DNA of 64,000 bases, taken from sequence record OQ992558.1, one strand, 5' to 3'. The translations under genes and the position numbers were made by a program. Below the pieces are notes generated by a model. It searched no databases. It was not told the origin of the DNA and saw only the letters and a program-made list of their open reading frames with translations. Position 1 is the first letter of the stretch. The number at the start of each line of letters is the position of its first letter. This document shows positions 1-36,486 of the stretch, piece after piece. Source of the DNA: Escherichia phage L14.

Positions 1-642
1 ATTTTCTAAAGCAATAGAAGCAGCAACAGCAACAGCTTTAGGAACAGCATTACCTGTTTTAACATCTACATAAACATCACCAACCTTTGATTCAACTTTT
101 GTGAATAACTCAGTTGAAATAGGAGGTACACCTGGAATGTCTTCTAAATTGGCATTTTTACGATAAACCATAATATATGCGTACTTTTTATCATAATCCC
201 AGATTTCCTTTAAAAGAACATATCGACCTGCTCCTTTAGTACGTACTAAACGGTCAGCAATAACTTGCATTTGACGAGCAGCGCCATTTGTTTTACTCTT
301 TAGTACGCGGAATAAGCATGCATCAATTTTATACTGTTTCATTGTTTGAAGAGCAGTATCAAAAACCGCATTAATGACACCAATTGGATTTCCACCCAAG
401 TTTTTAAGTTTAACTAATGATAGTTTCTCATTAACACCTATCATTACGATATGCATCATTTTATCGCCTGGCTTAACGTTTTTATTTGTATCACCGCCAG
501 AGGTGTATGTACAAAATCTAAATCCAGGAAGCACGCTTTCTTCACCGGCTTGAATAGCAAAAATTTGAGGTATTTTATGCTTAGGATTTAAGTTAACAAC
601 CGGCGCCGAAGCGCCGTCAAATAATTCTGTAATAAGTTCCAT
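1..642 (-). CDS. Alt-like ADP-ribosyltransferase paralog, N-terminal part only (gene runs off the window edge)
   Basis: Minus-strand ATG at 640-642 preceded by AAGGA; my translation (MELITELFDGASAPVVNLNPKHKIPQIF...) is open to position 1 and clearly homologous to the N-terminus of the adjacent alt ORF. Confidence 0.7.
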   Translation of the reverse strand, partial: MELITELFDGASAPVVNLNPKHKIPQIFAIQAGEESVLPGFRFCTYTSGGDTNKNVKPGDKMMHIVMIGVNEKLSLVKLKNLGGNPIGVINAVFDTALQTMKQYKIDACLFRVLKSKTNGAARQMQVIADRLVRTKGAGRYVLLKEIWDYDKKYAYIMVYRKNANLEDIPGVPPISTELFTKVESKVGDVYVDVKTGNAVPKAVAVAASIALEN

Positions 643-645
643 GAT

Positions 646-2739
646 TTATCCTTGAATGAACTTGTAAGGCATGTTTGCAATATCTATGCAAGATGCAATA
701 ATTCCAAGAGATGATTCTACTTTTTGTTTAACATTTGATGAAACAAATGATGCAAAGTCAACTCTGTCTTCTATTTCAATATCACCTGTCATTGCAACTA
801 CTTCACCAGTTTCCATTAGACGGTCACCGTCATAAATTACTGATTCAGTGAGTTCTTCCGTAGTCATAACTTCAGCTTGAATGAGTTTTGTATTATTAGA
901 TGTTGTTCCGTCATTATTAGAAGCATCAGTTATTTTATTAACTTTGACCATCAATCCGCGTGGTAGAATAACTTCAGCTTCTGTTGCTATTCCGAGGCTT
1001 CCTGGATATACAACATTAACTTTATGAGCTCCATCAATTGCCCATCCTATTTGAACTTTAACGTATTCGGGATTTTCTTTATACGCTCTTATTTCGTTTG
1101 AATTAATAGTTATTCCTTCTTCATTTTTATCAACTGTCAATTCATTACGAGCTTCTGGTTCTAAAAGACCAATACCAGCATGTGTAATTCCAAAACGTCC
1201 AAAAATGATAGGAGTTAAAGAAGTAGATACAAAATTTCTGAAATAGAACACTTTATTTTTAACTAGTGCTTCGTATATAGGAGCAGTCATGCTTTGAGCA
1301 CGATAAACTGTAATGCCTTCTGGTATACGGTCACCATTTTCAAAGGCTGAATCTAAATTATTTATCGCAGATTCAATTTCTTTTTCACTCATTACCTCAT
1401 ATCGTTCTGGATTGTAGCGACCTAAAAGAAGATTATTGATGTCAGTATATCCTGAACCACAATACTCTCTGATGCCGCGCTTTTGTGATGGAGTATATTT
1501 AGAACCATCACGAGCAATAGTAATATCAATCATTGGACCTGCACCAATTCCAGAAAAACTATAAATCATTCTTTTGAGGAATTTAGTTTTTGCTGCGTTC
1601 CAGGAATTTTTAGTTATTTCTTCCCAGACTTCATCTGTCTGTCCTTTACGAGTTTTATTATGTTTATCAAGCCAGTTATCTTTATATTCTTCAAATAATT
1701 GATTAACAGCTGCTGCGTATTTCTCTAAACATTTTATTGAAGTAGTTGGTTCATTTTTAATCGCATTAAGAATTACATCTTTAATTTTTTCAGAAACTTC
1801 ATTAACCTCACTTTTTGAAAAGAATTTATAGTCATAATGAAGTTCATCTGCAGTTCCTTCAGCAATAATTTTTGCTGCCTTAGTTTTAGAAGCTAATGAA
1901 TTAATTCCAAGCTTCATTTCTTCTGCTTCGGGAATTAAAGGAGCTGTAGCAGGTTTATTGAAATTAGCTGCGGTAGATTCATACTTCTGGAATAATTCAC
2001 TTTCAAATCTAGAAGATTCTAATGACTGACTTTGTGCAATTGCTCTACGGGAAATTTTAACTTTAACGATTACAGCTTGATCAGAACGTTTATCGTTTTC
2101 TTGCGCAATAGATGCTGCAATTGCCTCATTTTTAGTTACTTGAGCTCCAGTATCTTTATTGATATAAACATCACCGACCTTCGATTCAACTTTAGTAAAG
2201 AGCTCGGTACTAATTTCCGGAACTCCTGGAATGTCTTCTAGTGATACATTTTTGCGATGTATAAGAATATATGCATACTTTTTATCATAATCCCAGAGTT
2301 CCTTAAGAAGGACGTATCTGCCACCTGAACGACTACGGATAAGTCTATCAGCAATAACTTGAATTTGTCGAGCTTGACCAGCGGTTTTAGACTTAAGAAT
2401 ACGAAGCATACAAGCATCAATTTTATACTGACGCATTGTTTGCATTGCAACAGTAAAAACTGAATTGATATAATTAATTGGGCTTGGACCAAGACCTTTT
2501 AATTTAGCAATTGAACCTTTAGCAGTTAATGTAAAAGGAACAATATGCATCATTTTATCGCCCATTTTTAAATCGCGATTAGTATCACCTCCAGATGTAT
2601 AGGTACATAAACGAAAGCCTGGTTGTTCAATTGCATCATCAACATGAACTGAAAAAATTTGCGGTATTTTCTTCTTTGGATTTAAGTTTGTAATCGGAAG
2701 AGTAGTATCTTCGTCAAATAATTCTGTAATAAGTTCCAT
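646..2739 (-). CDS. alt: Alt ADP-ribosyltransferase (packaged internal head protein)
   Basis: 698-aa ORF recognised as T4 Alt; start moved to second ATG (MELITELF) which has GAGG at 5-nt spacing. Confidence 0.85.
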   Translation of the reverse strand: MELITELFDEDTTLPITNLNPKKKIPQIFSVHVDDAIEQPGFRLCTYTSGGDTNRDLKMGDKMMHIVPFTLTAKGSIAKLKGLGPSPINYINSVFTVAMQTMRQYKIDACMLRILKSKTAGQARQIQVIADRLIRSRSGGRYVLLKELWDYDKKYAYILIHRKNVSLEDIPGVPEISTELFTKVESKVGDVYINKDTGAQVTKNEAIAASIAQENDKRSDQAVIVKVKISRRAIAQSQSLESSRFESELFQKYESTAANFNKPATAPLIPEAEEMKLGINSLASKTKAAKIIAEGTADELHYDYKFFSKSEVNEVSEKIKDVILNAIKNEPTTSIKCLEKYAAAVNQLFEEYKDNWLDKHNKTRKGQTDEVWEEITKNSWNAAKTKFLKRMIYSFSGIGAGPMIDITIARDGSKYTPSQKRGIREYCGSGYTDINNLLLGRYNPERYEVMSEKEIESAINNLDSAFENGDRIPEGITVYRAQSMTAPIYEALVKNKVFYFRNFVSTSLTPIIFGRFGITHAGIGLLEPEARNELTVDKNEEGITINSNEIRAYKENPEYVKVQIGWAIDGAHKVNVVYPGSLGIATEAEVILPRGLMVKVNKITDASNNDGTTSNNTKLIQAEVMTTEELTESVIYDGDRLMETGEVVAMTGDIEIEDRVDFASFVSSNVKQKVESSLGIIASCIDIANMPYKFIQG

Positions 2740-2763
2740 CATAGCCTCTCTAGTGTTTATTCT

Positions 2764-2771
2764 ATTTATAA
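2764..2771 (-). promoter_or_regulatory. T4-type late promoter (TATAAATA) upstream of alt
   Basis: Exact TATAAATA on minus strand about 24 nt upstream of alt ATG; Alt is a virion protein so late expression is expected. Confidence 0.5.
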
Positions 2772-2791
2772 AATTAAAGGCCCGAAGGCCT

Positions 2792-2980
2792 TTAGTAATC
2801 TAGTGGTAAGAGAGTACGATATATTTCAAACTTTGGTCCTTTTTCATAGGCATCAAATGTTTCTGTAAATTTATTATAAGCGTATGCATCTACAAATTCG
2901 AGAATGACTTGTGATACAGAAGTAGAAACATCTCCACCTTCTTTTTGAGCAATGACAATTGTTTCTAAGTAAGCTTTCAT
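2792..2980 (-). CDS. hypothetical protein (62 aa) between ligase and alt
   Basis: ORF on coding strand, start overlaps ligase stop; followed by C(UUCG)G hairpin. Confidence 0.55.
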   Translation of the reverse strand: MKAYLETIVIAQKEGGDVSTSVSQVILEFVDAYAYNKFTETFDAYEKGPKFEIYRTLLPLDY

Positions 2981-4440
2981 AGACCAGTTACCTCATGAAA
3001 ATCACCAAATACATCCTCGAATGTATTAGCTTTAGTTTTATCTTCACGTAAACGAATCGCAATCGGAAGAAATAATTTAACGTAATCAGTGCGGCCATCA
3101 GATTTTAACCAACCGTTGCATTCGCACTCTAGAATTTTTCCAATATAATAATTTTGGTTTTCCATAATGCGAGTACGGTCAAGTTCATGCGATTTTACAC
3201 CGGCTTTATCTTTTAAGCCTGAACCAGCATTTACTTTAATTTTTCCACACTCTGACTCAAGAATAAATCCACCTGCTTTAGTAGGGTCTTTACGGTGAGG
3301 ATAAATTCCTACAATTTTTAAATCAACATCAATTACTTCTTTAAATTTATAGAGATTTTTTGAACGAGCATTTTCCCATAATCCATCGATATTTTTGAGA
3401 ATAATACCTTCAAGACCTTGGTCAATATACTTTTTATAAATTACCTTAGCTTCATCTAGGTTATTTACTACCTGGTTTTCAATTAAAATTACTTTATCAT
3501 ATCCCGATGTCATTTGTTCTAGTTTAGAAAAACGTACATCATATTTTAAACGAAACGCTGGAAGACCGTATATTTCTACCAACGGGACATAATCCCAGAC
3601 CTGAAACTTCATACATTGAGCTTCTTTTTCAGAAATGGTTCCCTTTAAAGATTTATTGGCGATGCCATTAGATGCAGTACGTGATTCAGCTACTTCGGCG
3701 AATTCTTTAGCTTTACTGTTTTCAGGATAAGCATCAAAAAGAAAATCTAGGCCTTCTGGCTCCTTTTCAACTTGCTCATGGTATACCAATTCGCCATCAA
3801 TTAACACGCCTTCTGGATGAATCTGGCGGGCTTCAGCGGTCATTTTGATTAATTCTTCCTTAAGAAGATCTAATCCTAGATATTCATTACCAGCTCGTGA
3901 TAAAAGACGAACGTCATCTAATTCATCACCTCTGACTTCGGCAAAGCACCGAGCTCCATCTGCTTTTAACTGGGCAAAGGCTGGAAATTTGATATTCTTA
4001 TTAATGCCTTTTTCATCATAAGAACTTGCGAGCATTTGAGGTTGTTCAGGAATTAAACCTGGCCAAACTTTGTTTGCAATAGATACTGAAGCACCACATT
4101 CAAGGTCTCGCATCATCACTCGACGCAAAACTTCAACATCATCTTTTTTACCGTCAGTAATATAACCTACTAATTCCTCAATTGCCGCATTTCCGGTCAA
4201 TTTTCGAGTAGCTAATGTAAATTCAATGAAGTCAAGCATATCAGTAATAGTCAGCATTCCAAAACTCTGGGTAGCAATACCAGGTTTAGGCCATTTCTTG
4301 ATATAATACTGTAACCCACGAGAATAAGTCAGACGATATACTCGTTTAAGCAATTCATTATCTTTATTCTTTTCAAGAATTGCTTGCTTCTGCTTAGTTG
4401 AACCAATAGATGCTATTTCGTTCAGAATTTTAAGAATCAT
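2977..4440 (-). CDS. 30: ATP-dependent DNA ligase
   Basis: 487 aa, recognised as T4 gp30; adenylation motif KADGAR. Confidence 0.93.
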   Translation of the reverse strand: MILKILNEIASIGSTKQKQAILEKNKDNELLKRVYRLTYSRGLQYYIKKWPKPGIATQSFGMLTITDMLDFIEFTLATRKLTGNAAIEELVGYITDGKKDDVEVLRRVMMRDLECGASVSIANKVWPGLIPEQPQMLASSYDEKGINKNIKFPAFAQLKADGARCFAEVRGDELDDVRLLSRAGNEYLGLDLLKEELIKMTAEARQIHPEGVLIDGELVYHEQVEKEPEGLDFLFDAYPENSKAKEFAEVAESRTASNGIANKSLKGTISEKEAQCMKFQVWDYVPLVEIYGLPAFRLKYDVRFSKLEQMTSGYDKVILIENQVVNNLDEAKVIYKKYIDQGLEGIILKNIDGLWENARSKNLYKFKEVIDVDLKIVGIYPHRKDPTKAGGFILESECGKIKVNAGSGLKDKAGVKSHELDRTRIMENQNYYIGKILECECNGWLKSDGRTDYVKLFLPIAIRLREDKTKANTFEDVFGDFHEVTGL

Positions 4441-9113: not shown

Positions 9114-9350
9114 TTATTTACCTATTACAGTTTTAATATGAGTTGTTCCACGTTCTTTAAGAGTGGAAAGTAATTTTTGGCATTTTTCTAAATCAGATTT
9201 CCAACTATGTGGTCTATCAATACAAACCCAGTTTGACTTATAATACTGCTTCCATTTAGAGAAAAAATACTTCTTATACTCTACAGCAAATGAAATGTTC
9301 TCGTTGGAATAAGAACTAATTGCTGTGAGTTGTACCAAACGAAATTTCAT
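9114..9350 (-). CDS. hypothetical protein (31.2 position)
   Basis: 78-aa coding-strand ORF, abuts cd. Confidence 0.55.
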   Translation of the reverse strand: MKFRLVQLTAISSYSNENISFAVEYKKYFFSKWKQYYKSNWVCIDRPHSWKSDLEKCQKLLSTLKERGTTHIKTVIGK

Positions 9351-9931
9351 TATTCACCACAGAATTCGTTGATATTTTCCCAGTTTAACTTATTCAAGTT
9401 TTTCTTAGGAACATTAAACACTTCAATACCTGCATTTCGCAGAATATCATCCCAGCCAGGTTTATTTTTATCGTATGTTTCACAATAAACCAGCTTTTTA
9501 ATTCCAGATTGAGCTATTGCTTTTGCACAATCTGGGCAAGGAGAAAGTGTTACATACATAGTAGCACCTTCAATTGAAGAACCGTTTCGTGCAGCAAACA
9601 AAATAGCATTTAGTTCAGCATGAATTTCATTTTTAGACGACCATTCAGAGTGCGCGCTACGATGTTCTTTCGCCAATACAAAACGATCAGTTGAACCAAA
9701 CGATACACATTCAGGCTTATGACCTTGAATGATAGTATGTTTAGGCTTATTCAGCAACCAACCTTGCTCAGCAGCATAATCACAGCAGTTCACACCACCT
9801 GCAGGTGAACCATTATATCCAGTAGAAATAATACGTCCATTCTTTTCAATTACTGCTCCTACTTTCCAGGAGCAACATTTTGATTCTTGTGATACTAAAT
9901 ATGCAATTTGAAGTACTGTACTCGCTTTCAT
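9350..9931 (-). CDS. cd: dCMP deaminase
   Basis: 193 aa; zinc-binding HAE...PCxxC cytidine/deoxycytidylate deaminase motifs. Confidence 0.9.
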   Translation of the reverse strand: MKASTVLQIAYLVSQESKCCSWKVGAVIEKNGRIISTGYNGSPAGGVNCCDYAAEQGWLLNKPKHTIIQGHKPECVSFGSTDRFVLAKEHRSAHSEWSSKNEIHAELNAILFAARNGSSIEGATMYVTLSPCPDCAKAIAQSGIKKLVYCETYDKNKPGWDDILRNAGIEVFNVPKKNLNKLNWENINEFCGE

Positions 9932-10266: not shown

Positions 10267-10499
10267 AGTACGCCATACACCCTTTGTGCTTCAACTAATC
10301 CATCAAAATCCAATTTGAGATGTGTTATTTGGTCACCATCACCTGGATTCACAATTACTAATACTGAACGAGGAGTTTCGGTAATAACACGAACCGATGT
10401 TTCGGGAAATCGTTCAGAAACCTTATTTACTAATTCCTGCGCAAATAGTTTAACTTTTTCTTGGAATTCTTTAACAGTAATTGGTTTTTCACTTAGCAT
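10263..10499 (-). CDS. hypothetical protein (78 aa)
   Basis: coding-strand ORF. Confidence 0.5.
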   Translation of the reverse strand: MLSEKPITVKEFQEKVKLFAQELVNKVSERFPETSVRVITETPRSVLVIVNPGDGDQITHLKLDFDGLVEAQRVYGVL

Positions 10500-11020
10500 G
10501 TTGATCCCAGCTCCTTACTTTCAACGTTTTTAACTAATTTGACAGAAACTAATTCAGCATCTTGGGTAATCATTACCGGGCCTTCTTCATACTCTTCAAG
10601 ATATTCTAGAGCTTTCTTTTTAGCTTCTTCCTTTGTATCAGTTTGAGCATAGATATAAAACATGCAACCAGTAATACCTACTACTTTCCACTTAATTTCT
10701 TTATCAGTTTTAATTTCAAATTTACTGGCAGAATCATCTTTTTGAACTTCTTCGAAAAAAGAATATTCTAACATATAAGCAATTGAAAATAACGGGCTAA
10801 CTTTATAGGATTCACCCATTACATCAACAGCTTTATACCAACAATCATCAATTTCGCGTTTAATGCTAATAACATTCTTTGCAGGGTCAATTTTTACTTT
10901 AAATGAATTTTCCCCAATAAACTGGGCGATTCGTTTATTAGCCCCGCAAGTTTCATTAAAAATATCTTTATACCCAGTTTTAAAGCGATAAACCTTATCT
11001 TCTTCAAACCATTCGCTCAT
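10493..11020 (-). CDS. hypothetical protein (175 aa)
   Basis: coding-strand ORF, GAGGAAA RBS, early promoter upstream. Confidence 0.55.
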   Translation of the reverse strand: MSEWFEEDKVYRFKTGYKDIFNETCGANKRIAQFIGENSFKVKIDPAKNVISIKREIDDCWYKAVDVMGESYKVSPLFSIAYMLEYSFFEEVQKDDSASKFEIKTDKEIKWKVVGITGCMFYIYAQTDTKEEAKKKALEYLEEYEEGPVMITQDAELVSVKLVKNVESKELGSTC

Positions 11021-11422: not shown

Positions 11423-12623
<1,201 letters not shown>

Positions 12624-12627
<4 letters not shown>

Positions 12628-15673: not shown

Positions 15674-16852
15674 TTAAAAGTATTTTTTAAAACTCATCAT
15701 AACTTTATCATCAACATCATTATCAATCTGTGCAACAAGATAAGATGACAGTTCTACTTCTTGTGGCGCTGATTGAACATTATCAGAATTAAGATATTCA
15801 CGAATCCAAGGATATGGATGTTTAACCGGAGCATCGGTAATTGGGCATGGAAGACCGCACTGTTTCATACGAGATACAGTTAAGTAATCAATAAAGCTCC
15901 ACATGCTATTTGTATTTAATCCAGGAACATCGCCATCTTTAAATAAATGAACTGCCCAATCTTTTTCTTGACGGTTAACTTCCATGAAAATATCAACTGC
16001 TTCTTGTTCACACTCTTGAGCAATTTTAACCCATTGATCGCCATCAGTACCAGATTGAAGTTGACGAATAATATATTGTGTACCTTTAAGATGAAGCTGC
16101 TCATCACGTGCAATGAACTTCATAATCTTGGCATTACCTTCCATGATTTCCATGTTTTTATGGAAGTTAAAGGTACACGCAAAGGATACATAAAAACGAA
16201 TAGCTTCTAATGCATTAATAACGTGCAAACAGAGGTAAAGAGATTTCATTAGCTCACGCTTCCAATATGTCTCATGCTCAATAGCATCTTCAATAACGTC
16301 TTCGTCTGCATTAATTTCTTTTTGGTATTCGATATCAGCTTTAGCGTTTTCCCAATAACGAGTTTTAATCAGAACATCATCATAATAACGTCCAATGGAT
16401 TCAGCACGTTTCATAATAGCTTCATCTAATACAATTTCATCAAATACCTTCGATGGATCAGTATAAAGATTTCGCATGATATGAGTATATGAACGACTGT
16501 GAATAGTTTCACTAAAAGTCCATGTAGCAACCCATGTATCAAGGCTTGGGTCTGAAATTAATGACATAAGTACAGCAGATGGCGCGCGACCCTGAATGCT
16601 ATCTAAAAGTGATTGATACTTCAAGTTGTTAGTAAAAATATTTTGCTGATACTGAGGAAGCTTATTAAACTGTGCAGCATCCATCATCAAGTTTACTTCT
16701 TCAGGACGCCAGAAAAATGATAATTGCTTTTCGGTTAAATCTTCAAAAACTTTATGACGTTGAATATCATAACGCGCAATACCAAGACCTGAACCAAAAA
16801 ACATAGGTTCTTTTAAAACATCAACTGGATTTGTATTAAAAACTGTGCTCAT
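15674..16852 (-). CDS. nrdB: aerobic ribonucleotide reductase small subunit, uninterrupted
   Basis: 392-aa continuous ORF with class I RNR beta features; no intron. Confidence 0.93.
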   Translation of the reverse strand: MSTVFNTNPVDVLKEPMFFGSGLGIARYDIQRHKVFEDLTEKQLSFFWRPEEVNLMMDAAQFNKLPQYQQNIFTNNLKYQSLLDSIQGRAPSAVLMSLISDPSLDTWVATWTFSETIHSRSYTHIMRNLYTDPSKVFDEIVLDEAIMKRAESIGRYYDDVLIKTRYWENAKADIEYQKEINADEDVIEDAIEHETYWKRELMKSLYLCLHVINALEAIRFYVSFACTFNFHKNMEIMEGNAKIMKFIARDEQLHLKGTQYIIRQLQSGTDGDQWVKIAQECEQEAVDIFMEVNRQEKDWAVHLFKDGDVPGLNTNSMWSFIDYLTVSRMKQCGLPCPITDAPVKHPYPWIREYLNSDNVQSAPQEVELSSYLVAQIDNDVDDKVMMSFKKYF

Positions 16853-16903
16853 AAATTTTCCGCTTAGTTAATAGTTGGTGACTCGTCCGTGAGTCAAATT
16901 ATA

Positions 16904-19168
16904 TCATAATTTACAGGATGAACAATCTTCAGCTTTTGGAGTTTCTATTTCATAATCATCAGTACCAGAACCATCGCGTGTATTATGATAATAGAAATTT
17001 TTAATGCCATAATACCATCCGTATAGCATGTCATCAATCATTATTGACATTGGAACCTTTCCTTTTGGAAAAATCTGCGGATCATAATATGTATTCGCTG
17101 AAGCTGATTGACATACCCATTTCAGCATAATAGCTACCTGCGTAAGATAAGGTTTATTACCTTTCTTGGCTAATTTCCATGTATAATCATAGAGGTCTAT
17201 GTTATGCTCAATATTCGGAACAACTTGATTAAATGAACCATCTTTTGATTCTTTAACACTTACCGGTCCGCGTGGAGGCTCGATGCCGTTTGTACTGTTA
17301 GATACCTGACTGGACGATTCACAAGGCATAAGTGCTGATAATGTGCTATTACGGATGCCAAAGAGCTTAAGGTCTTCCCGCAGCGCCGACCAGTCACAAA
17401 CGTATTTTGGAGCTGCGATTTGGTCAATCTTTTTATTGTACCAGTCGATAGGTAATTCGCCTCGAGACCAACGAGTGTCTGAATAATATTCGCAAGGTCC
17501 TTTTTCTTTGGCGAGCTTAATGGATGCTTTAATGAGTCCATACTGTAATCTCTCAAATAATTCATGTGTTAAATCGTTAGCATCTTCATAAGAAGCAAAG
17601 TTACTTGCCAGCCAAGCTGCATAGTTGGTAACACCTACACCAAGGTTACGGCGCTTTTTAGCTTTTTCTGCTTCAGGAACTGGATATCCTTGGTAATCCA
17701 ACAGATTATCAAGAGCACGAACTTGAACTTCTGCCAATTCATTAATTTTATCTTGGTCTTGCCAGTCAAAATTATCTAGTACGAATGCAGAGAGAGTACA
17801 CAATCCAATTTCAGCATCAGGACTATTCACATCATTTGTTGGAATAGCAATTTCACAGCACAAGTTACTCTGACGAATAGGCGCCTTTTCACGAATAAAC
17901 GGAGTATAGTTATTCGTATTATCAATGAACTGCACATAAATCCTTGCGGTTCCTGAACGTTCAGTCATGAGCAATTCAAATAGTTCACGGGCTTTAATAC
18001 GCTTTTTACGAATATTAGGGTCTTTTTCTGCTGCTTCGTATAATTCACGGAAACGGTCTTGGTCTTTAAAATAAGAATAATAAAGCTCGCCACCCATTTC
18101 ATGCGGACTGAACAAAGTAATGTAATCATTCTTTCCGAATCGTTCCATCATCAAATCATTCAGTTGAACACCATAATCCATATGACGAATGCGGTTTTCT
18201 TCTACGCCTTTGTTATTTTTCAAAACAAGAAGATTTTCAACTTCCAAATGCCAAATAGGATAATAAGCAGTAGCAGCGCCGCCACGAATTCCACCCTGTG
18301 AGCATGATTTAACAGCAGTCTGAAAATGTTTCCAAAAAGGAATAACACCAGTATGGCGTACTTCACCCATGCCAATCTTAGAACCTTCAGCACGAATCAT
18401 ACCAACGTTAATACCAATTCCAGCGCGTTTAGAGATATATTCAACAATTGAAGCAGAAGCCTTATTGATAGACTTCAGTGAATCGCCTGCCTCAATAACA
18501 ACACATGAACTAAACTGCCGAGTTGGAGTACGGCAACCAGCCATAATAGGAGTTGGTAATGAAATCTGTCGAGTAGATACCGCTTCATAAAAACGGATAA
18601 CATGTTTTAATCTATCAACAGGTTCATCTTGATGCAATGCCATTCCAATAGTCATAAATGCAAACTGTGGAGTTTCATAAATTTGACCAGTGGTTTTATC
18701 TTTAACTAGATATTTTTCTTTTAATTGCATCGCCCCGGAATAAGTAAATTCCATATCCCGCTCGTGCTTAATTTTTGATTCTAAAAATGTAATTTCTTCT
18801 GCTGAATATTTTGACAATAATTCAGGGTCATATTTACCTTCATTTACACAGTAAGAAATATGGTCAATAAATGAACGTGGTTCATACTGCCCATAAACAT
18901 GCTTACGAAGAGCGAACATTAAACAACGTGCAGCTACATATTGATAATCAGGCTCTTCAACCGAAATAGAATTCGCAGCGGCCTTAATGACAATAGTCTG
19001 AATATCATCAGTTGTCATTCCATCACGGAGATAAGATTTAATATTTTCATATAATTCATAAGGATCTACTGATGTTCCTTCAGCTGCCCAAGATAAAACT
19101 TTAATAATTTTTTGCGGGTCAAAGCTCTGAGAAACACCACTACTTTTGATAACATTAATTAATTGCAT
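16904..19168 (-). CDS. nrdA: aerobic ribonucleotide reductase large subunit
   Basis: 754 aa, recognised as T4 NrdA. Confidence 0.95.
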   Translation of the reverse strand: MQLINVIKSSGVSQSFDPQKIIKVLSWAAEGTSVDPYELYENIKSYLRDGMTTDDIQTIVIKAAANSISVEEPDYQYVAARCLMFALRKHVYGQYEPRSFIDHISYCVNEGKYDPELLSKYSAEEITFLESKIKHERDMEFTYSGAMQLKEKYLVKDKTTGQIYETPQFAFMTIGMALHQDEPVDRLKHVIRFYEAVSTRQISLPTPIMAGCRTPTRQFSSCVVIEAGDSLKSINKASASIVEYISKRAGIGINVGMIRAEGSKIGMGEVRHTGVIPFWKHFQTAVKSCSQGGIRGGAATAYYPIWHLEVENLLVLKNNKGVEENRIRHMDYGVQLNDLMMERFGKNDYITLFSPHEMGGELYYSYFKDQDRFRELYEAAEKDPNIRKKRIKARELFELLMTERSGTARIYVQFIDNTNNYTPFIREKAPIRQSNLCCEIAIPTNDVNSPDAEIGLCTLSAFVLDNFDWQDQDKINELAEVQVRALDNLLDYQGYPVPEAEKAKKRRNLGVGVTNYAAWLASNFASYEDANDLTHELFERLQYGLIKASIKLAKEKGPCEYYSDTRWSRGELPIDWYNKKIDQIAAPKYVCDWSALREDLKLFGIRNSTLSALMPCESSSQVSNSTNGIEPPRGPVSVKESKDGSFNQVVPNIEHNIDLYDYTWKLAKKGNKPYLTQVAIMLKWVCQSASANTYYDPQIFPKGKVPMSIMIDDMLYGWYYGIKNFYYHNTRDGSGTDDYEIETPKAEDCSSCKL

Positions 19169-20037: not shown

Positions 20038-20357
20038 CATTATGTTCAGATAAGGTCGTTAATCTTACCCCGGAATTATATCCAGCTGCATGTCACCATG
20101 CAGATCAGACTATATCTTCAACTTGTTAAAGCAAGTTGTCTATCGTTTCGAGTCACTTGACCCTACTCCCCAAAGGGATAGTCGTTAGGCATTTATGTAG
20201 AACCAATTCCATTTATCAGATTTTACACGGTAAGTAACTAATCCTGATGAAATTATTAAAGGGTAGTCCTACAATTTAGCACGGGATTGTCTACTAGAGA
20301 GGTCCCCCGTTTAGATAGATTACAAGTATAAGTCACCTTATACCTAGGCCTCAATTA
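20038..20357 (-). ncRNA. group I self-splicing intron in td, about 320 nt, no internal ORF
   Basis: intron ends match my memory of the T4 td intron (5-prime UAAUUGAGGCCU..., 3-prime ...CUGAACAUAAUG); in-frame TAA directly after exon 1; no ORF over 60 aa inside. Confidence 0.85.
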
Positions 20358-20906
20358 ACCCAAGAAAACATCTACACTGCGTTGATACCATTGTAAATCA
20401 AGATAACCATTACGCACATTAAACTGATAGAACATATGACAAGGTGGTAATGCCATATATTTAAGTTCAGCTGGATTCCACGCAGAAACAATTTGACGCC
20501 TATCACTTGGTAGTTTTTTAATACGATCAATAACTTCTATAATTTGGTCTACACCGCCAAAATCGCGCCACTGTTTTCCATAAATTGGGCCAAGTTCACC
20601 ACTATGGTATCCTAAATCTTTTGCCTGATTTTCGTAATTTTCATCCCAAACTGTTTTGCCTTGGATTAACGAATCATGCTGAATTAATCGTAAATCATTG
20701 ACATTTGTGCTTCCTGATAAAAACCAAAGTAGCTCAGCAATGCAAGCTTTCCAGGCGAGCTTCTTAGTTGTTACCGCAGGAAAACCTTTAGTTAAATCCC
20801 AGCGTAATTTAGTACCGAATAAAGCAATTGTTCCTGTGCCTGTTCGGTCATCGGTTTCATAGCCATTTTCAAAAATGTCTTTAATTAAATCTTGGTATTG
20901 TTTCAT
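20358..20906 (-). CDS. td: thymidylate synthase, exon 1
   Basis: 183 aa ending ...VDVFLG, then intron. Confidence 0.9.
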
Positions 20907-20951: not shown

Positions 20952-21299
20952 TCAATACGGTTTAGCATCAAATTTTCTCTCAATTTCAGGTGTGAAATAT
21001 AATTCTTTACCACGTTTGGAAAAGCGACCAATAATATGATAATTATTCTCATCAAACGTGATATTACCAATATCCATAGCTTTCAACCAAATATCGATAT
21101 TTCTATCCAGCTTTATGTCAAAATTCCAATACGGAGAACTATTACCGAAAATACTGCAAGCGGATTCAGTGAAACAACTGCTATAAATCTTGTCTTTAGG
21201 AACTACTAATTGATAGACACCTTTAATAAACTGAGGACCCTGCCACTTTGGCTGTTTCGTGTCTTTTTCTAATAGAATAGGGTAATAATTAAAATTCAT
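20952..21299 (-). CDS. hypothetical protein (115 aa) inserted between frd and td
   Basis: coding-strand ORF MNFNYYPILLEKD...; no motif recognised. Confidence 0.55.
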   Translation of the reverse strand: MNFNYYPILLEKDTKQPKWQGPQFIKGVYQLVVPKDKIYSSCFTESACSIFGNSSPYWNFDIKLDRNIDIWLKAMDIGNITFDENNYHIIGRFSKRGKELYFTPEIERKFDAKPY

Positions 21300-21318: not shown

Positions 21319-22145
<827 letters not shown>

Positions 22146-22156
22146 ATTGCCTCCTA

Positions 22157-22489
22157 TTAAAAAGGATCAGTAACATATCCGCTAGCTTTAATCATTTTAA
22201 TTAACGTTAACATTCCTTTGTTAACTGCTCGTGAGATTTCATCAAAAACTTCATCACTAAAAAGTTCTAACACGCCCTTCTGAACTTTTAATTTACAGCC
22301 AACAATTTCGTCATCTCCTATAGTAAATTCGCTTCCGCCAATTCCGCCGAAAAACTTAATTACGCCAGTTAACTGTCTTCCACGAGAATATGGGTCGTGT
22401 GATAAAGTAATATGAGTCACCCCAGGTACAGTTTTAAATTGGCAGCGGATGTTTACTTGAGCAATTCCAGTTACATGAATGTCAGACAT
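22157..22489 (-). CDS. hypothetical protein (110 aa)
   Basis: coding-strand ORF. Confidence 0.55.
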   Translation of the reverse strand: MSDIHVTGIAQVNIRCQFKTVPGVTHITLSHDPYSRGRQLTGVIKFFGGIGGSEFTIGDDEIVGCKLKVQKGVLELFSDEVFDEISRAVNKGMLTLIKMIKASGYVTDPF

Positions 22490-24573: not shown

Positions 24574-24660
24574 TTTTATTTCCTTTTTTAATTTAATTAA
24601 CAGTTGGTGCTATGACGATGTATGACCTCATAGCTGGTCAGTGAGATAATTATAATCTAT
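24574..24660 (-). promoter_or_regulatory. gene 32 translational operator (5-prime leader pseudoknot plus A/U-rich tract)
   Basis: leader contains GCUAUGAGGUCAUACAUCGUCAUAGCACC then UUAAUUAAAUUAAAAAAGGAAAUAAAA-AUG, matching my memory of the T4 autoregulatory site. Confidence 0.6.
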
Positions 24661-24673
24661 TTATAATAAGCAA

Positions 24674-31995: not shown

Positions 31996-32646
31996 ATGGC
32001 TGATTTAAAAGTAGGTTCAACTGTAGGTGGATCTGTCATTTGGCATCAAGGAAATTTTCCATTGAATTCAGCCGGTGACGATGTACTCTACAAATCATTT
32101 AAAATATATTCAGAATATAATAAACCACAGGCAGCTGATAACGATTTCGTTTCTAAAGCTAATGGTGGTACTTACACCGGTCCAATTACTATTAATTACG
32201 GGGTAAATAGTTATCTTCAATTAAGTAATAATGAAACCCCCATTCGAATTCGTTCTGGTGGCGGTACCGGTAATACTCTTGTAGTTGGCGGCTCTTCCGG
32301 CGGTATTAGTTTTAGACCTGCAGGTAGTGAAATCACTACTGGACAAATTACTATTACACCAGAAGGTTTGACAACATTTACCAGGGCTGTAACGGCTCCA
32401 TCGGTAACTGTTACATCTACTCCTTCCGCAGCATCTGATGTTACTCGCAAAGATTATGTTGATGGAGCAATAAATACTGTTACAGCAAATGCAAACTCTA
32501 GGGTATTACGCTCTGGAGACACTATGACAGGAAATTTAACTGCGCCAAACCTTTTTTCACAGAATCCTGCATCTCAACCTTCACACGTTCCACGATTTGA
32601 CCAAATCGTAATTAAGGATTCTGTTCAAGATTTCGGCTATTATTAA
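31996..32646 (+). CDS. 36: long tail fibre distal connector
   Basis: 216 aa, position and size match T4 gp36. Confidence 0.88.
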
Positions 32647-32654
32647 GAGGACTT

Positions 32655-35639
32655 ATGGCTACTTTAAAACAAATACAATTTAAAAGAAGCAAAATTGCAG
32701 GTCAACGTCCTGCAGCTTCAGTATTAGCCGAAGGTGAATTGGCTATAAACTTAAAAGATAAAACAATTTTCACAAAAGATGACTCAGGTAGTGTTATAGA
32801 ATTAGGTTTAAAATATGGAGGAACAATTGATGGTTCTTTAACTGTTAATGGAAATATAATTGGAAATTTAACAGGTAACGCTGCAACTGCAACGAAATTA
32901 AAAACAGCACGAAAAATTAATGGTATATCCTTTGATGGGTCAAAAGATATCACGCTAACTCCATCTGACATAAATGTCAATAGCACAACGTTTATAAAAA
33001 ATAATGGCGAATTACCTGTTGATGCTAATTTAGATACGTATGGGCCTGTTGAAGAATATCTTGGAGTTTGGTCGAAAGCAACTTCAACCAACGCTCAACC
33101 AGCAAATAAATTTCCAGAAGAAAATGCTGTAGGTGTGCTAGAAGTATTTGTGGCCGGTCAATTTGCTGGTACTCAGAGATATACAACTAGATACGGAAAT
33201 GTTTATATTCGTTCCTTGACTGCTACATGGAACGGAGTAAATGGTCCGTGGAGTGTGTGGCGAAATATTCAATCCGGTACTCGTCCACTGTCAACAACAA
33301 TTGATCTTAATGATCTAGGAGGCGCTGAACACTTTGGTTTGTGGCGAAATAGTTCAAATTCCATTGCTACCTTTGACAGAAATTTCCCAGAAGAGGGGTC
33401 GTCAGCTCAAGGTCTTTTGGAAGTATATGAAGGTGGAAAATATTCTCGTACACAAAGATATACAACCAGATTTGGTGTTGTATATACTCGTTGTCTTGCT
33501 GCCGCGTGGGATGCTTCCGCGCCTAAATGGGGACCGTGGCAACAAGTCGGTAATGTCACACCAGCGACTTTCTATGACGGAGATCTGAATGATTTTAAAA
33601 CCCCTGGGTTATATAATATTTTAGGCACTGATGCCGTTATTAACTGTCCTACAGGTGAAGGTTTGCCGCCTGTTATTATTGGTTTACTGGAAGTTAAACA
33701 GCGTGCTTCCGGTGGTGCTATTTTCCAAAAATTTACTACTGCCGGAACGGGTGCAACTACTCGCGGACGTATTTTTGAGCGTGCATATACTGGTGGTGCG
33801 TGGGGCGCATGGAACGAAGTATATACATCTTATTCTCTGCCAATTACTTTGGGTATGGGTGGTATTAAAACTCAATTAGCGGAGCTAGATTGGCAAACAT
33901 TTGATTTTGTTCCTGGTAGTATGTTTAGCGTTCCTTTGAACAAAATAAAGAACATGCCAGCAAATATGGATTGGGGCACGATTGATGGAAACTTGATTAT
34001 GTTTTCCGTCGGTCCTAGCGAACACACTAGCACAGGGCGTACTGTTCAGGTTTGGCGTGGTACTGTATCCCAGACAAACTACCGTTATTTTGTCGTTCGT
34101 GTATTCGGTAATTCAGGAAATAGAGCTTGCACAGTTCGTCGTGTTGTTCTTGAAGATGGTCGCCACAAATGGACAGCGCAACAAGATTTTAATGGTGCTG
34201 TTAACTTCGGTGCTCCTACCAATTTTAACTCTACTGTTAACCTTAATAACACTACCACTTTTAAAACAGAAGTTAAATTTCGCTCATTGAATGCATTCCG
34301 TATGTATGGCGGAAAATTTGGTACATTTTTACGTAATGATGGAGAGAGTCTTTATATTCTTTCCACCGACGAAGATGATCAAGATGGAAACTTTAATACA
34401 AATAGACCTTTCCGTTATGAATTAAGAACTGGTGATGTTACTTTGGGTGGTGCTAGTGGTGCTAACGTTTTAAAATTAAAACGTGATTCTCTCACCGCAT
34501 TTTTTGGTGGTGATATTAACATGAAAGGCTTGATGACTTTTGACGCCGGACGTTTAGGATCACGAGATTATTTTAAATTTAACCATTGGGGTGATAGCAA
34601 TAACGCTCGTGATAACATTATTCAGTTAGAAGATAGCAAAGGCGTTCATTTTTCCACTGAACGTACTTTAGCGACTGGTGCAATTAAAACTAAATTCTTT
34701 GGTGAAGTTGAATCAACTGGTCGATTGACTATTAAACGTCCGGGTGATGCGATTGTATTATCGACTACAGCCAGCAACTCTTTGCATATTCGTGGTGACG
34801 TAGACGGGACTGGTAACTGGTATATTGGCAAGGGTGGTGCTGATAATGGATTAGCGTTCTATAGTTATGCTACTAATGCTGGTGTATACATTACAAACGG
34901 AGGGGATATCGCGCTAAGTCCAAAAGGTGTCGAAATGGCTCAGGTCAATAACGTTCGATTATATGTTCATGGTGAACGTTGGACCGCTAGTCAACCAGGT
35001 GATTGGGGTAGTCAGTGGCAAGTGGAAGCGCCAATATTCGTCGATCATGGTTATGTTTCACAGGATTGTTATTATCCAATTATTAAAGGAAGAAGTGTAA
35101 TCACCAATCAAGGGTATGTAACTGCCGTCGATCTTGGTATTCGTCGTGTCAATAACAATTGGGGACAAGCAATTATTCGTGTTGGATCTGCAGAGGCATC
35201 GCCAGCGGCTGGACACCCTAACGCGGTATTTGAATTTCATTACGACGGTACTTTCTATTCTCCTGGTAATGGTAATTTTAGCGATGTGTATATTCGTTCT
35301 GACTCCCGTCTCAAGATTAATAAAGAAGAATTAGAATATGGAGCGGTCGAAAAAGTTTGCCGACTAAAAGTTTATATTTACGATAAAGTTAAGTCTATTA
35401 AAGACCGTAGTGTTATTAAACGTGAAGTTGGTATTATTGCTCAGGACCTTGAAAAGGAATTGCCGGAAGCTGTATCTAAAGTTGAAGTTGATGGATCTGA
35501 TGTTCTGACAATTTCTAACTCTGCTGTGAATGCTCTTTTAATTAAGGCCATTCAGGAAATGAGCGAAGAAATTAAAGAATTGAAAACACCTTTCTTCACT
35601 AAAATTGCTCGCAAAATTAGTAATTATTTTAAATTCTAA
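32655..35639 (+). CDS. 37: long tail fibre distal subunit with C-terminal intramolecular chaperone domain
   Basis: 994 aa; C-terminal about 113 aa carries an S74-like SDxRxK motif (SDSRLK). Confidence 0.93.
35298..35636 (+). other. predicted self-cleaving intramolecular chaperone domain of gp37
   Basis: motif SDSRLK followed by a coiled-coil-like tail. Confidence 0.55.
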
Positions 35640-35671
35640 CAGCAGGGGGCTTTGCCCCTTTGGAGAAAATT

Positions 35672-36454
35672 ATGGCAGTAGTTGGTGTTCCTGGTTGGAT
35701 TGGTAGTTCATCCGTAAATGAAACAGGACAACGATGGATGAGTCAAGCGGCTGGTCAATTAAGATTGGGTATTCCTTGCTGGATGAGTCAATTTGCAGGT
35801 CGCTCAAGAGAAATTATTCACACGCTTGGAGCAGACCATAACTTCAATGGTCAATGGTTCCGAGATAGATGTTTTGAGGCAGGTAGTGCACCTATAGTGT
35901 TTAATATCACTGGAGATTTAGTATCATATTCTAAAGATGTTCCTTTATTCTTCATGTACGGAGATACACCGAATGAATATGTTCAGTTGAACATACATGG
36001 TGTAACGATGTATGGCCGTGGCGGGAATGGCGGTAGCAATAGTCCTGGCTCAGCTGGGGGTCATTGTATTCAAAATGATATTGGTGGGAGACTAAGAATT
36101 AATAATGGTGGAGCTATTGCTGGCGGCGGTGGCGGCGGGGGCGGCGGGTATTATTCTCCTTTTTCACAAATGAGATTGACCTTTGGCGGTGGCGGCGGTC
36201 GTCCGTTTGGCGCACCGGGCGGATCTATTGATATGCAATCAGGAGCAACTGCTGGTACTATTTCTGCGCCAGGCGCAGGGTCTGTGAACGGTATCTACAA
36301 CGGCGGGTCTGGTGGTGAAGTTGGCTCCGCAGGAGGTAGATGTAATATTCGTGGTCAAGGATATGAATACGATGGCGGAGCTGCTGGTTATGCCGTCATA
36401 GGGTCTACACCGACATGGCAAAACGTTGGAGCAATATATGGTCCAAGAGTATAA
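35672..36454 (+). CDS. 38: tail fibre adhesin gp38, T2-type with glycine-rich motifs
   Basis: 260 aa from ATG at 35672 (GGAG RBS); C-terminal half has GGGGGGGG and other poly-Gly segments separating variable stretches. Confidence 0.85.
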
Positions 36455-36486
36455 TTTTTGAATAAATACCCTTAAAAGGAGGGTCT

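Follow-up and report, generated by a model that had tools for sequence, protein, structure and literature searches.

T4 Alt (gpAlt) is packaged in the phage head, injected into the host and acts as a mono-ADP-ribosyltransferase, with RNA polymerase alpha and other host proteins as its targets. In the window analysed here, a stretch of 64,000 nucleotides from Escherichia phage L14 (sequence record OQ992558.1), which derives from a Tequatrovirus (T4-like phage), the alt gene at the left edge is directly followed by a second, Alt-like gene that runs out of the window. The locus raises the question of whether this second gene (copy B) is a true paralogue of alt (copy A), whether it is intact, and what its product could do during infection.

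Two Alt-family genes at the left edge of the window

Copy A occupies 646..2739 on the minus strand and was identified as alt from its open reading frame and PF03496; with the ATG at 2739..2737 as its start, it encodes 697 aa. The ORF listing gives 698 aa from the adjacent ATG at 2742..2740, but the Shine-Dalgarno sequence GAGAGG (2745..2750, minus strand) stands 5 nt upstream of the ATG at 2739 and just 2 nt upstream of the one at 2742, and the start at 2739 is therefore favoured; relatives are also annotated with the 697-aa form. A look-up of exact products returned neither the 697-aa nor the 698-aa protein. The protein is 99.6% identical to Alt of phage Killian and 72% identical overall to T4 Alt, and the gene is the T2/T6-type allele. 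Its N-terminal domain (aa 1-238, 2026..2739, minus strand) shares ∼100% identity with T4 Alt and 68% with copy B, and its ADP-ribosyltransferase (ART) domain (aa 378-627, 859..1608, minus strand; PF03496, E = 3.1e-37) contains the catalytic motif, composed of R480 in VYRAQ (1294-1308), STS 505-507 in VSTSL (1216-1230) and E587-x-E589 in EAEVIL (964-981), all on the minus strand.

On the same strand, the alt stop codon TAA (648..646) is followed by ATC (645..643) and the ATG of copy B (642..640), so that the second gene begins 3 nt past the stop, where the initial annotation had placed it. Codons 1-214 of copy B, the 5' part of an alt.-2 ortholog matching PHROG 802, occupy 1..642 on the minus strand; the frame is free of stops over these 214 codons (642 nt) and is still open at position 1, in agreement with the earlier view that only the N-terminal part of the gene is inside the window. 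The initial annotation had also proposed that the two genes are tandem Alt paralogues, with N-termini that are homologous yet diverged, and had asked for their pairwise alignment. Both proposals hold: the 214 aa and the Alt of the window share 144/215 identities in BLASTP (67%, E = 3e-104), the matching stretch of DNA is 68.4% identical with its first 27 nt unchanged, and the fragment matches the PHROG 802 family 'Alt-like RNA polymerase ADP-ribosyltransferase' over positions 2-217 (E = 1.2e-104). The BLASTP E value to Alt rules out a chance ORF or a repeat artefact, and alt and copy B are true tandem paralogues of the T4 Alt family. A homolog search with the 214-aa fragment returned five proteins, of which four were partial, and an AlphaFold2 model of the fragment, computed with an alignment of only 7 rows, reached a mean pLDDT of 54.8 and a pTM of 0.47, values too low for the model to strengthen the case.

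Identity and domain make-up of the second gene

The 214 aa of copy B match the beginning of a 685-aa gene of phage Killian at 100% identity and are 98.6-100% identical to the alt.-2 orthologs of T2, RB14, RB32, RB51, RB9, RB68, Shfl2, Killian and several hundred further Tequatrovirus records, the label alt.-2 being the one used in the Shfl2 and RB68/RB9 records. In these relatives alt.-2 is found between alt and alt.-3 with a spacing of 3 nt, both as in L14, and no difference from copy B is detectable over the 214 aa in the window. Copy B is the known gene alt.-2, and the tandem arrangement is likewise already known, having long been annotated in hundreds of related phages. At full length the orthologs measure 2058 nt (685 aa), with ∼1416 nt beyond the edge of the L14 window; these 3' two thirds would hold the ART domain and catalytic residues of copy B, both of which were read in the orthologs.

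The Killian ortholog, identical to the window fragment over its first 214 aa, matches PF03496 with E = 2.8e-20, at a score of 72.9 bits for the copy B ortholog compared to 128.3 bits for copy A, and six related contigs carry precomputed PF26846 (Tevenvirinae_ADPRT) matches on both copies. In all 12 of 12 related loci read, alt.-2 is an intact 685-aa ORF with YR.Q, STS and EAEVIL, and the R / S-T-S / E-x-E motif (LYRGQ, VSTSL, EAEVIL) is present in each of these 12 orthologs. Divergence between copies A and B is unevenly distributed along the protein, with identities of 68% for the N-terminal domain, 14-22% for the middle region, 35% for the ART domain and 42% for the tail. The copy B family shares with T4 Alt the Tevenvirinae_ADPRT N-terminal domain, a variable middle, ADPrib_exo_Tox and a C-terminal tail, as well as the R-S-ExE motif and the protease motifs ITE-6 and L-x-E; identity between copy B and T4 Alt is 46% overall (N-terminal domain 68%, middle 22%, ART domain 36%, tail 42%). 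Within the copy B family, six orthologs gave dN/dS values of 0.015-0.046 at dS of 0.10-0.27, and they are under strong purifying selection. A few metagenomic proteins (P0089, P0085, P0097 and P0096) combine the Alt N-terminal domain with C-terminal regions in which no ART domain shows.

A search of PDB sequences with full-length copy B gave no match, whereas the ART domains alone returned weak matches to binary toxins (E = 1e-2 for copy B and 3e-5 for copy A). By sequence, the solved structures nearest to these domains are VIP2, iota toxin Ia and CdtA, and the alignments cover the arginine and ExE regions: SEAEVIL of copy B falls on the stretch SEKEILL of Vip2, and EAEV of Alt on the stretch GEYEVLL of CdtA, which we take to be the catalytic ExE of the toxin. 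Unlike the Alt family, the binary toxins have eukaryotic actin as their target and carry unrelated delivery domains.

Predicted expression, processing and fate of the copy B product

Inspection of the DNA upstream of alt by pattern search identified one match to the T4 late-promoter consensus TATAAATA (2763..2770, minus strand), 23 nt upstream of the alt start, and it is the sole such motif upstream of alt and copy B. The window contains 8 occurrences of TATAAATA against 9.1 expected; since this count is no higher than chance, only the position of the site at 2763..2770 is meaningful. A terminator scan revealed a G+C-rich hairpin with a T-run, resembling an intrinsic terminator, at 2775..2794 on the minus strand, where it ends the upstream early unit (ligase, alt.1); a conserved terminator upstream of alt has been described in T4-like phages (Nolan et al. 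2006, PMC1524935). Between alt and copy B, neither a late-promoter motif nor a terminator was found by the same pattern search and scan, and a separate late promoter for copy B was rejected, as none is present by pattern search. A Shine-Dalgarno-like AAGGA (649..653, minus strand) lies 6 nt upstream of the copy B ATG, inside the last alt codons (TTCAAGGATAAATCATG).

The prohead protease gp21 cleaves T4 Alt at ITE-6 and LTE-619 (PMC5694885). The first nine residues, MELITELFD, are shared and invariant in both copies, and I-T-E at codons 4-6 of copy B (625..633, minus strand) is identical to the ITE-6 motif. At the C-terminal L-x-E position, copy A has LTE (aa 630-632, 844..852, minus strand), homologous by alignment to LTE-619 of T4 Alt, and the copy B orthologs have LEE. 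Predicted gp21 motifs are hence kept by the copy B orthologs at both T4 Alt cleavage positions.

Taken together, we consider it likely that alt and alt.-2 form a tandem in which copy B encodes a second head-packaged and injected arginine ADP-ribosyltransferase with host targets different from those of Alt. In this scheme a single late transcript starting at the TATAAATA promoter ahead of alt would cover alt and copy B, with copy B translated from its own AAGGA site overlapping the alt end. Alt and Alt.-2 would then enter the prohead core via the conserved N-terminal domain and the propeptide, gp21 would cleave both after ITE-6 and at the C-terminal L-x-E (LTE in copy A, LEE in copy B), and both would leave the head together with the DNA and enter the cell, each to mono-ADP-ribosylate arginines of host proteins using NAD+. 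Co-transcription of the two genes, packaging, cleavage and ejection of the copy B product, and its arginine specificity are predictions. Divergence between the copies is much greater in the ART domain (35% identity) and the middle region (14-22%) than at the N-terminal domain, so that copy B most likely modifies other host proteins, and the diversification of targets suggested by the initial annotation is a reasonable reading. The Alt N-terminal domain may in addition be a general head-delivery module, in line with the metagenomic proteins that join it to other C-terminal regions.

A product that is intact and catalytic yet unpackaged, and that acts in the cell late in infection or is redundant with Alt, seems improbable to us. 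Such a situation is not foreign to the T4 family, since ModA and ModB are ARTs that act without packaging (PMC5512222), and our literature search, in which Nolan et al. 2006 was the one relevant paper to mention alt.-2, found no virion proteomics, activity or target data on Alt.-2, and thus no proteomic evidence of it in virions; but copy B begins with the same nine residues as Alt, ITE-6 site included, and even with the same 27 nt, and it keeps the C-terminal L-x-E site. In addition, the N-terminal domain is its best conserved part (68%), as expected if this domain touches conserved head components. Redundancy with Alt is hard to square with 35% identity of the ART domains and a dN/dS of ∼0.03.

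It is very unlikely that the L14 gene is a pseudogene, truncated or frameshifted past the window edge, even if this is what has happened in T4. There, the second copy is a frameshifted 348-nt remnant split into two short ORFs, alt.-1 and alt.-2, which correspond by homology to nt 1-348 of copy B and are 88% and 82% identical in amino acids to the Killian copy B versus 59% and 55% to Alt; in the T4 GenBank record itself, the remnant is traced to an old duplication of the beginning of alt. The T4 copy has two lesions: the reading frame shifts near codons 55-62, and a deletion of ∼1.69 kb after nt 348 spared only the last ∼20 nt. Loss is recurrent: the gene is gone in T4 and ∼95 other records, which retain only the first 348 nt (17% coverage), and a different deletion in phage sutha left only the last 128 nt. 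On laboratory hosts at least, the second copy is therefore dispensable. The T4 lesions are, however, absent from the readable part of the L14 gene, which stays in frame for 642 nt and past both of them, and a T4-type pseudogene is rejected for this part. Among 497 matching phage records, 401 span 80% or more of the gene, a number that matches the 396 records in which the N-terminus is at least 95% identical to copy B (tblastn; T2 is included in both sets). The 12 intact loci described above point the same way, and the 685-aa copy B is also intact in all six related contigs retrieved through the ligase and in the closest relative (98.6% DNA identity). By extrapolation from relatives with a DNA identity of 98-99%, copy B is probably full length in the L14 genome.

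Least probable of all is that copy B is catalytically inactive and accompanies Alt in the head core in a structural or chaperone-like role. Its lower ART Pfam score (72.9 versus 128.3 bits) could speak for this, but R, S-T-S and E-x-E are kept in every ortholog read, and in the alignment to Vip2 they fall on the R and E-x-E stretches of the toxin.

Related duplications and significance of a second Alt

Duplication of alt is not confined to the relatives of L14, as tandem, diverged full-length or partial copies have been reported in 44RR (ORF187c/188c) and RB49 (ORF183c) (Nolan et al. 2006, PMC1524935), and a tblastn search with copy B matched two places each in 44RR2.8t, dhabil and Merlin. The 44RR and RB49 duplications differ from the L14 pair in belonging to other genera and in their much lower identity (∼41% in the N-terminal domain for 44RR). 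Another comparison is offered by ModA and ModB, small proteins (∼200 aa) expressed early, whose differing substrates set an example of how tandem duplicates can diversify in their targets. They are an adjacent, diverged pair of R-S-E ARTs of T4, from the same phage family, and unlike the Alt family they are without the Alt N-terminal domain and are not packaged (PMC5512222).

The practical point of the tandem alt pair is modest and adds nothing beyond the existing public annotation. For the biology of the family, T4, on which all Alt biology is based, is atypical at the alt locus, and about three quarters of sequenced Tequatroviruses, T2 included, encode an intact second Alt-like enzyme. It is an evenly balanced proposition that Alt.-2 would be a fourth ART in most Tequatroviruses, delivered by the virion, with targets unlike those of Alt and possibly including anti-phage defence proteins; Alt.-2 would have been overlooked because the laboratory model T4 has only the remnant. 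For studies of host takeover by T-even phages, and for the engineering of therapeutic T4-like phages, the number of ARTs to be reckoned with should be four, not three (Alt, Alt.-2, ModA and ModB).

Tandem alt genes and their earlier description

The gene order of T4 is kept on the minus strand at the left end of the window, where the ORF list contains gene 30 (DNA ligase, 4440..2977), a homologue of alt.1 (62 aa, 2980..2792) and an Alt homologue of 697 aa (copy A, 2739..646). The ORF call for alt is one codon longer, from an ATG at 2742; the ribosome-binding site GAGAGG has a spacing of 5 nt to the start at 2739 and of just 2 nt to that at 2742, and the 697-aa form is the one annotated in relatives. 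The initial annotation had placed a second gene directly downstream of alt, and the sequence bears this out: after the TAA stop of alt (648..646) come ATC and the ATG of the second gene (copy B, 642..640), 3 nt past the stop. The frame of copy B runs without a stop through 214 codons, from 642 down to position 1, and only its N-terminal part lies inside the window, as had been stated. The proposed homology of these 214 residues to Alt, with divergence, also holds, at 67% identity to the Alt of the window (E = 3e-104, BLASTP); at the DNA level copy B and alt share 68% identity and their first 27 nt are the same.

A megablast search with positions 1..2800 matched 538 phage records, nearly all Tequatrovirus, with Escherichia phage Killian on top (98.6% identity). 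In Killian and Shfl2 the gene after alt is a complete 2058-nt ORF (685 aa) between alt and alt.-3, annotated as 'Alt-like RNA polymerase ADP-ribosyltransferase' with the note 'similar to RB14, RB32 and RB51 alt.-2', and the 214 residues of copy B match those of the Killian protein at 100% identity. By sequence comparison, copy B belongs to the T4 Alt family and is the orthologue of the gene annotated as alt.-2 in T2, the RB phages and Shfl2. The duplication of alt is already known: the T4 GenBank record and Nolan et al. 2006 (PMC1524935) both document it, and hundreds of genomes carry it in their annotation. Among paralogous duplications of alt, Nolan et al. list T4 alt.-1/alt.-2, RB49 ORF183c and 44RR ORF188c, and they describe 44RR ORF187c as a full-length one. 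Our literature search found no experimental work on Alt.-2, virion proteomics included, and the nearest functional precedent for diverged tandem ADP-ribosyltransferases (ARTs) within the same phages is ModA/ModB.

Maintenance and loss of copy B

At least 80% of Killian copy B is covered in 401 of the 497 records that match it, the remainder being mostly T4-like with 17% coverage. By tblastn, 396 records, T2 included, encode an N-terminus with 95% or higher identity to the fragment in the window, and about 130 have an Alt-type match alone, at 60-80%. In all 12 related loci that were read, copy B encodes 685 aa and contains YR.Q, STS and EAEVIL. Pairwise dN/dS among six orthologues is 0.015-0.046 (dS 0.10-0.27), which indicates that copy B is maintained by selection.

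In place of copy B, the T4 reference record lists a pair of short ORFs, alt.-1 and alt.-2; its notes ascribe the two jointly to an old duplication that covered the first part of alt and was interrupted by a stop codon. Their identity to copy B is 88% and 82%, against just 59% and 55% to Alt, which makes them the remnant of copy B rather than the product of a separate duplication. When T4 was mapped onto Killian, two lesions became apparent, a 1-nt frameshift within the remnant and a deletion of ~1.69 kb from copy B nt 349 to ~20 nt short of the stop codon, leaving nt 1-348 and the last ~20 nt, frameshifted (T4 locus L003, 5066-5451). Phage sutha carries a different deletion, with the last 128 nt alone kept (locus L008, 5012-5128), so copy B has been lost independently at least twice. 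A T4-type pseudogene is ruled out for the readable part of copy B in phage L14, the frame being intact well past both T4 lesions. Because of this intact frame, and because the 396 intact N-termini match the 401 full-length records, copy B of phage L14 is very probably full length, though about two thirds lie beyond the window edge.

Other differences from T4 were also observed. A group I intron is found in td (20086-20367, minus strand; Rfam RF00028, 70.3 bits), with no homing-endonuclease ORF in it, and no sequence of the window corresponds to the T4 stretch 143768-144458, which overlaps I-TevI. By blastn against T4, further T4 mobile elements also lack counterparts: the nrdB intron with I-TevIII, nrdB.1 plus mobE, and segG (window positions ~16176, ~16852-16908 and ~24637-24673). 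Conversely, minus-strand ORFs without a T4 counterpart at their places encode 175 aa between cd.2 and cd.3 (10493-11020), 100 aa adjoining pseT (12325-12627), 115 aa between td and frd (20952-21299), and 81 and 110 aa after frd (21900-22489). The distal tail-fibre module (32174-36462, plus strand) is unlike that of T4, comprising gene 36, a gp37 of 994 aa and a gp38 of 264 aa, and blastn gives no match to T4 over the greater part of it; we take a gp38 of ~264 aa to be a T2-type adhesin.

Modular divergence of the Alt proteins

Alignment of the two copies, a check proposed in the initial annotation, revealed modular divergence: along the Alt of the window, identity to copy B is 68% in the N-domain (residues 1-238), 14-22% in the middle (239-420), 35% in the ART domain (421-630) and 42% in the C-terminal tail (631-697). 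Against T4 Alt (L003 5455-7503) the same regions are ~100%, 35%, 66% and 94% identical, the first 238 residues and the ~65 at the C-terminus being 94-100% identical, and dN between the two Alt types is about 0.21. Because its middle and ART domain diverge between near-identical flanks, the Alt of phage L14 is a second allelic type relative to T4 Alt, and the difference looks like a central cassette swapped between conserved flanks. Each Alt type is found together with intact copy B.

Pfam detects ADPrib_exo_Tox (PF03496) in the Alt of the window (residues 378-627, E = 3e-37), T4 Alt (374-614, E = 6e-36) and Killian copy B (414-620, E = 3e-20), and the R, S-T-S and E-x-E motifs are kept in all three. 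In PDB sequence matches, SEAEVIL of copy B pairs with SEKEILL of Vip2 and EAEV of copy A with GEYEVLL of CdtA, toxin stretches that carry the catalytic E-x-E. E-x-E, unlike Q-x-E, is typical of arginine-specific ARTs (R-S-E clade).

In a full HMMER scan covering 1.84 billion representative proteins, just 103 clusters reached E <= 1e-3, of which 59 reached E <= 1e-30; the majority are 600-710 aa long, share the two-domain layout and have a middle region that could not be aligned. Four metagenomic representatives (P0089, P0085, P0097 and P0096; 347-1142 aa in total) match the Alt N-domain only (PHROG 802, N-terminal part), with no ART or other Pfam match in their remainder, which hints that the N-domain could serve as a module for delivery via the head, with other effectors as cargo.

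Proposed expression and delivery, and the alt region

Directly downstream of copy B, outside the window, lies alt.-3 (96 aa; 9277-9567 in the related locus L001). T4 mutants escaping the CmdTAC defence map to alt.-3, via C-terminal extensions (PMC11618068), and alt, alt.-2 and alt.-3 may together form a small island for interaction with the host.

Upstream of alt, a terminator-like hairpin (2794..2775, minus strand) is directly followed by the T4 late-promoter consensus TATAAATA (2770..2763, minus strand). A pattern search for this motif and a terminator scan found neither between alt and copy B, and AAGGA is located 6 nt upstream of the copy B start codon. A T4 head contains about 40 copies of Alt (PMC9026906), and the prohead protease gp21 cleaves T4 Alt at ITE-6 and LTE-619 (PMC5694885); MELITEL is unchanged in copy B, which has LEE at the site homologous to LTE. 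In the best-supported reading, alt and copy B would form a single late transcription unit, both products would enter the prohead via their conserved N-terminal part, be trimmed by gp21 and be ejected along with the DNA, and each would ADP-ribosylate arginine residues in host proteins, with a substrate range for copy B that differs from that of Alt. For copy B, we infer packaging and ejection as well as its enzymatic activity and its targets.
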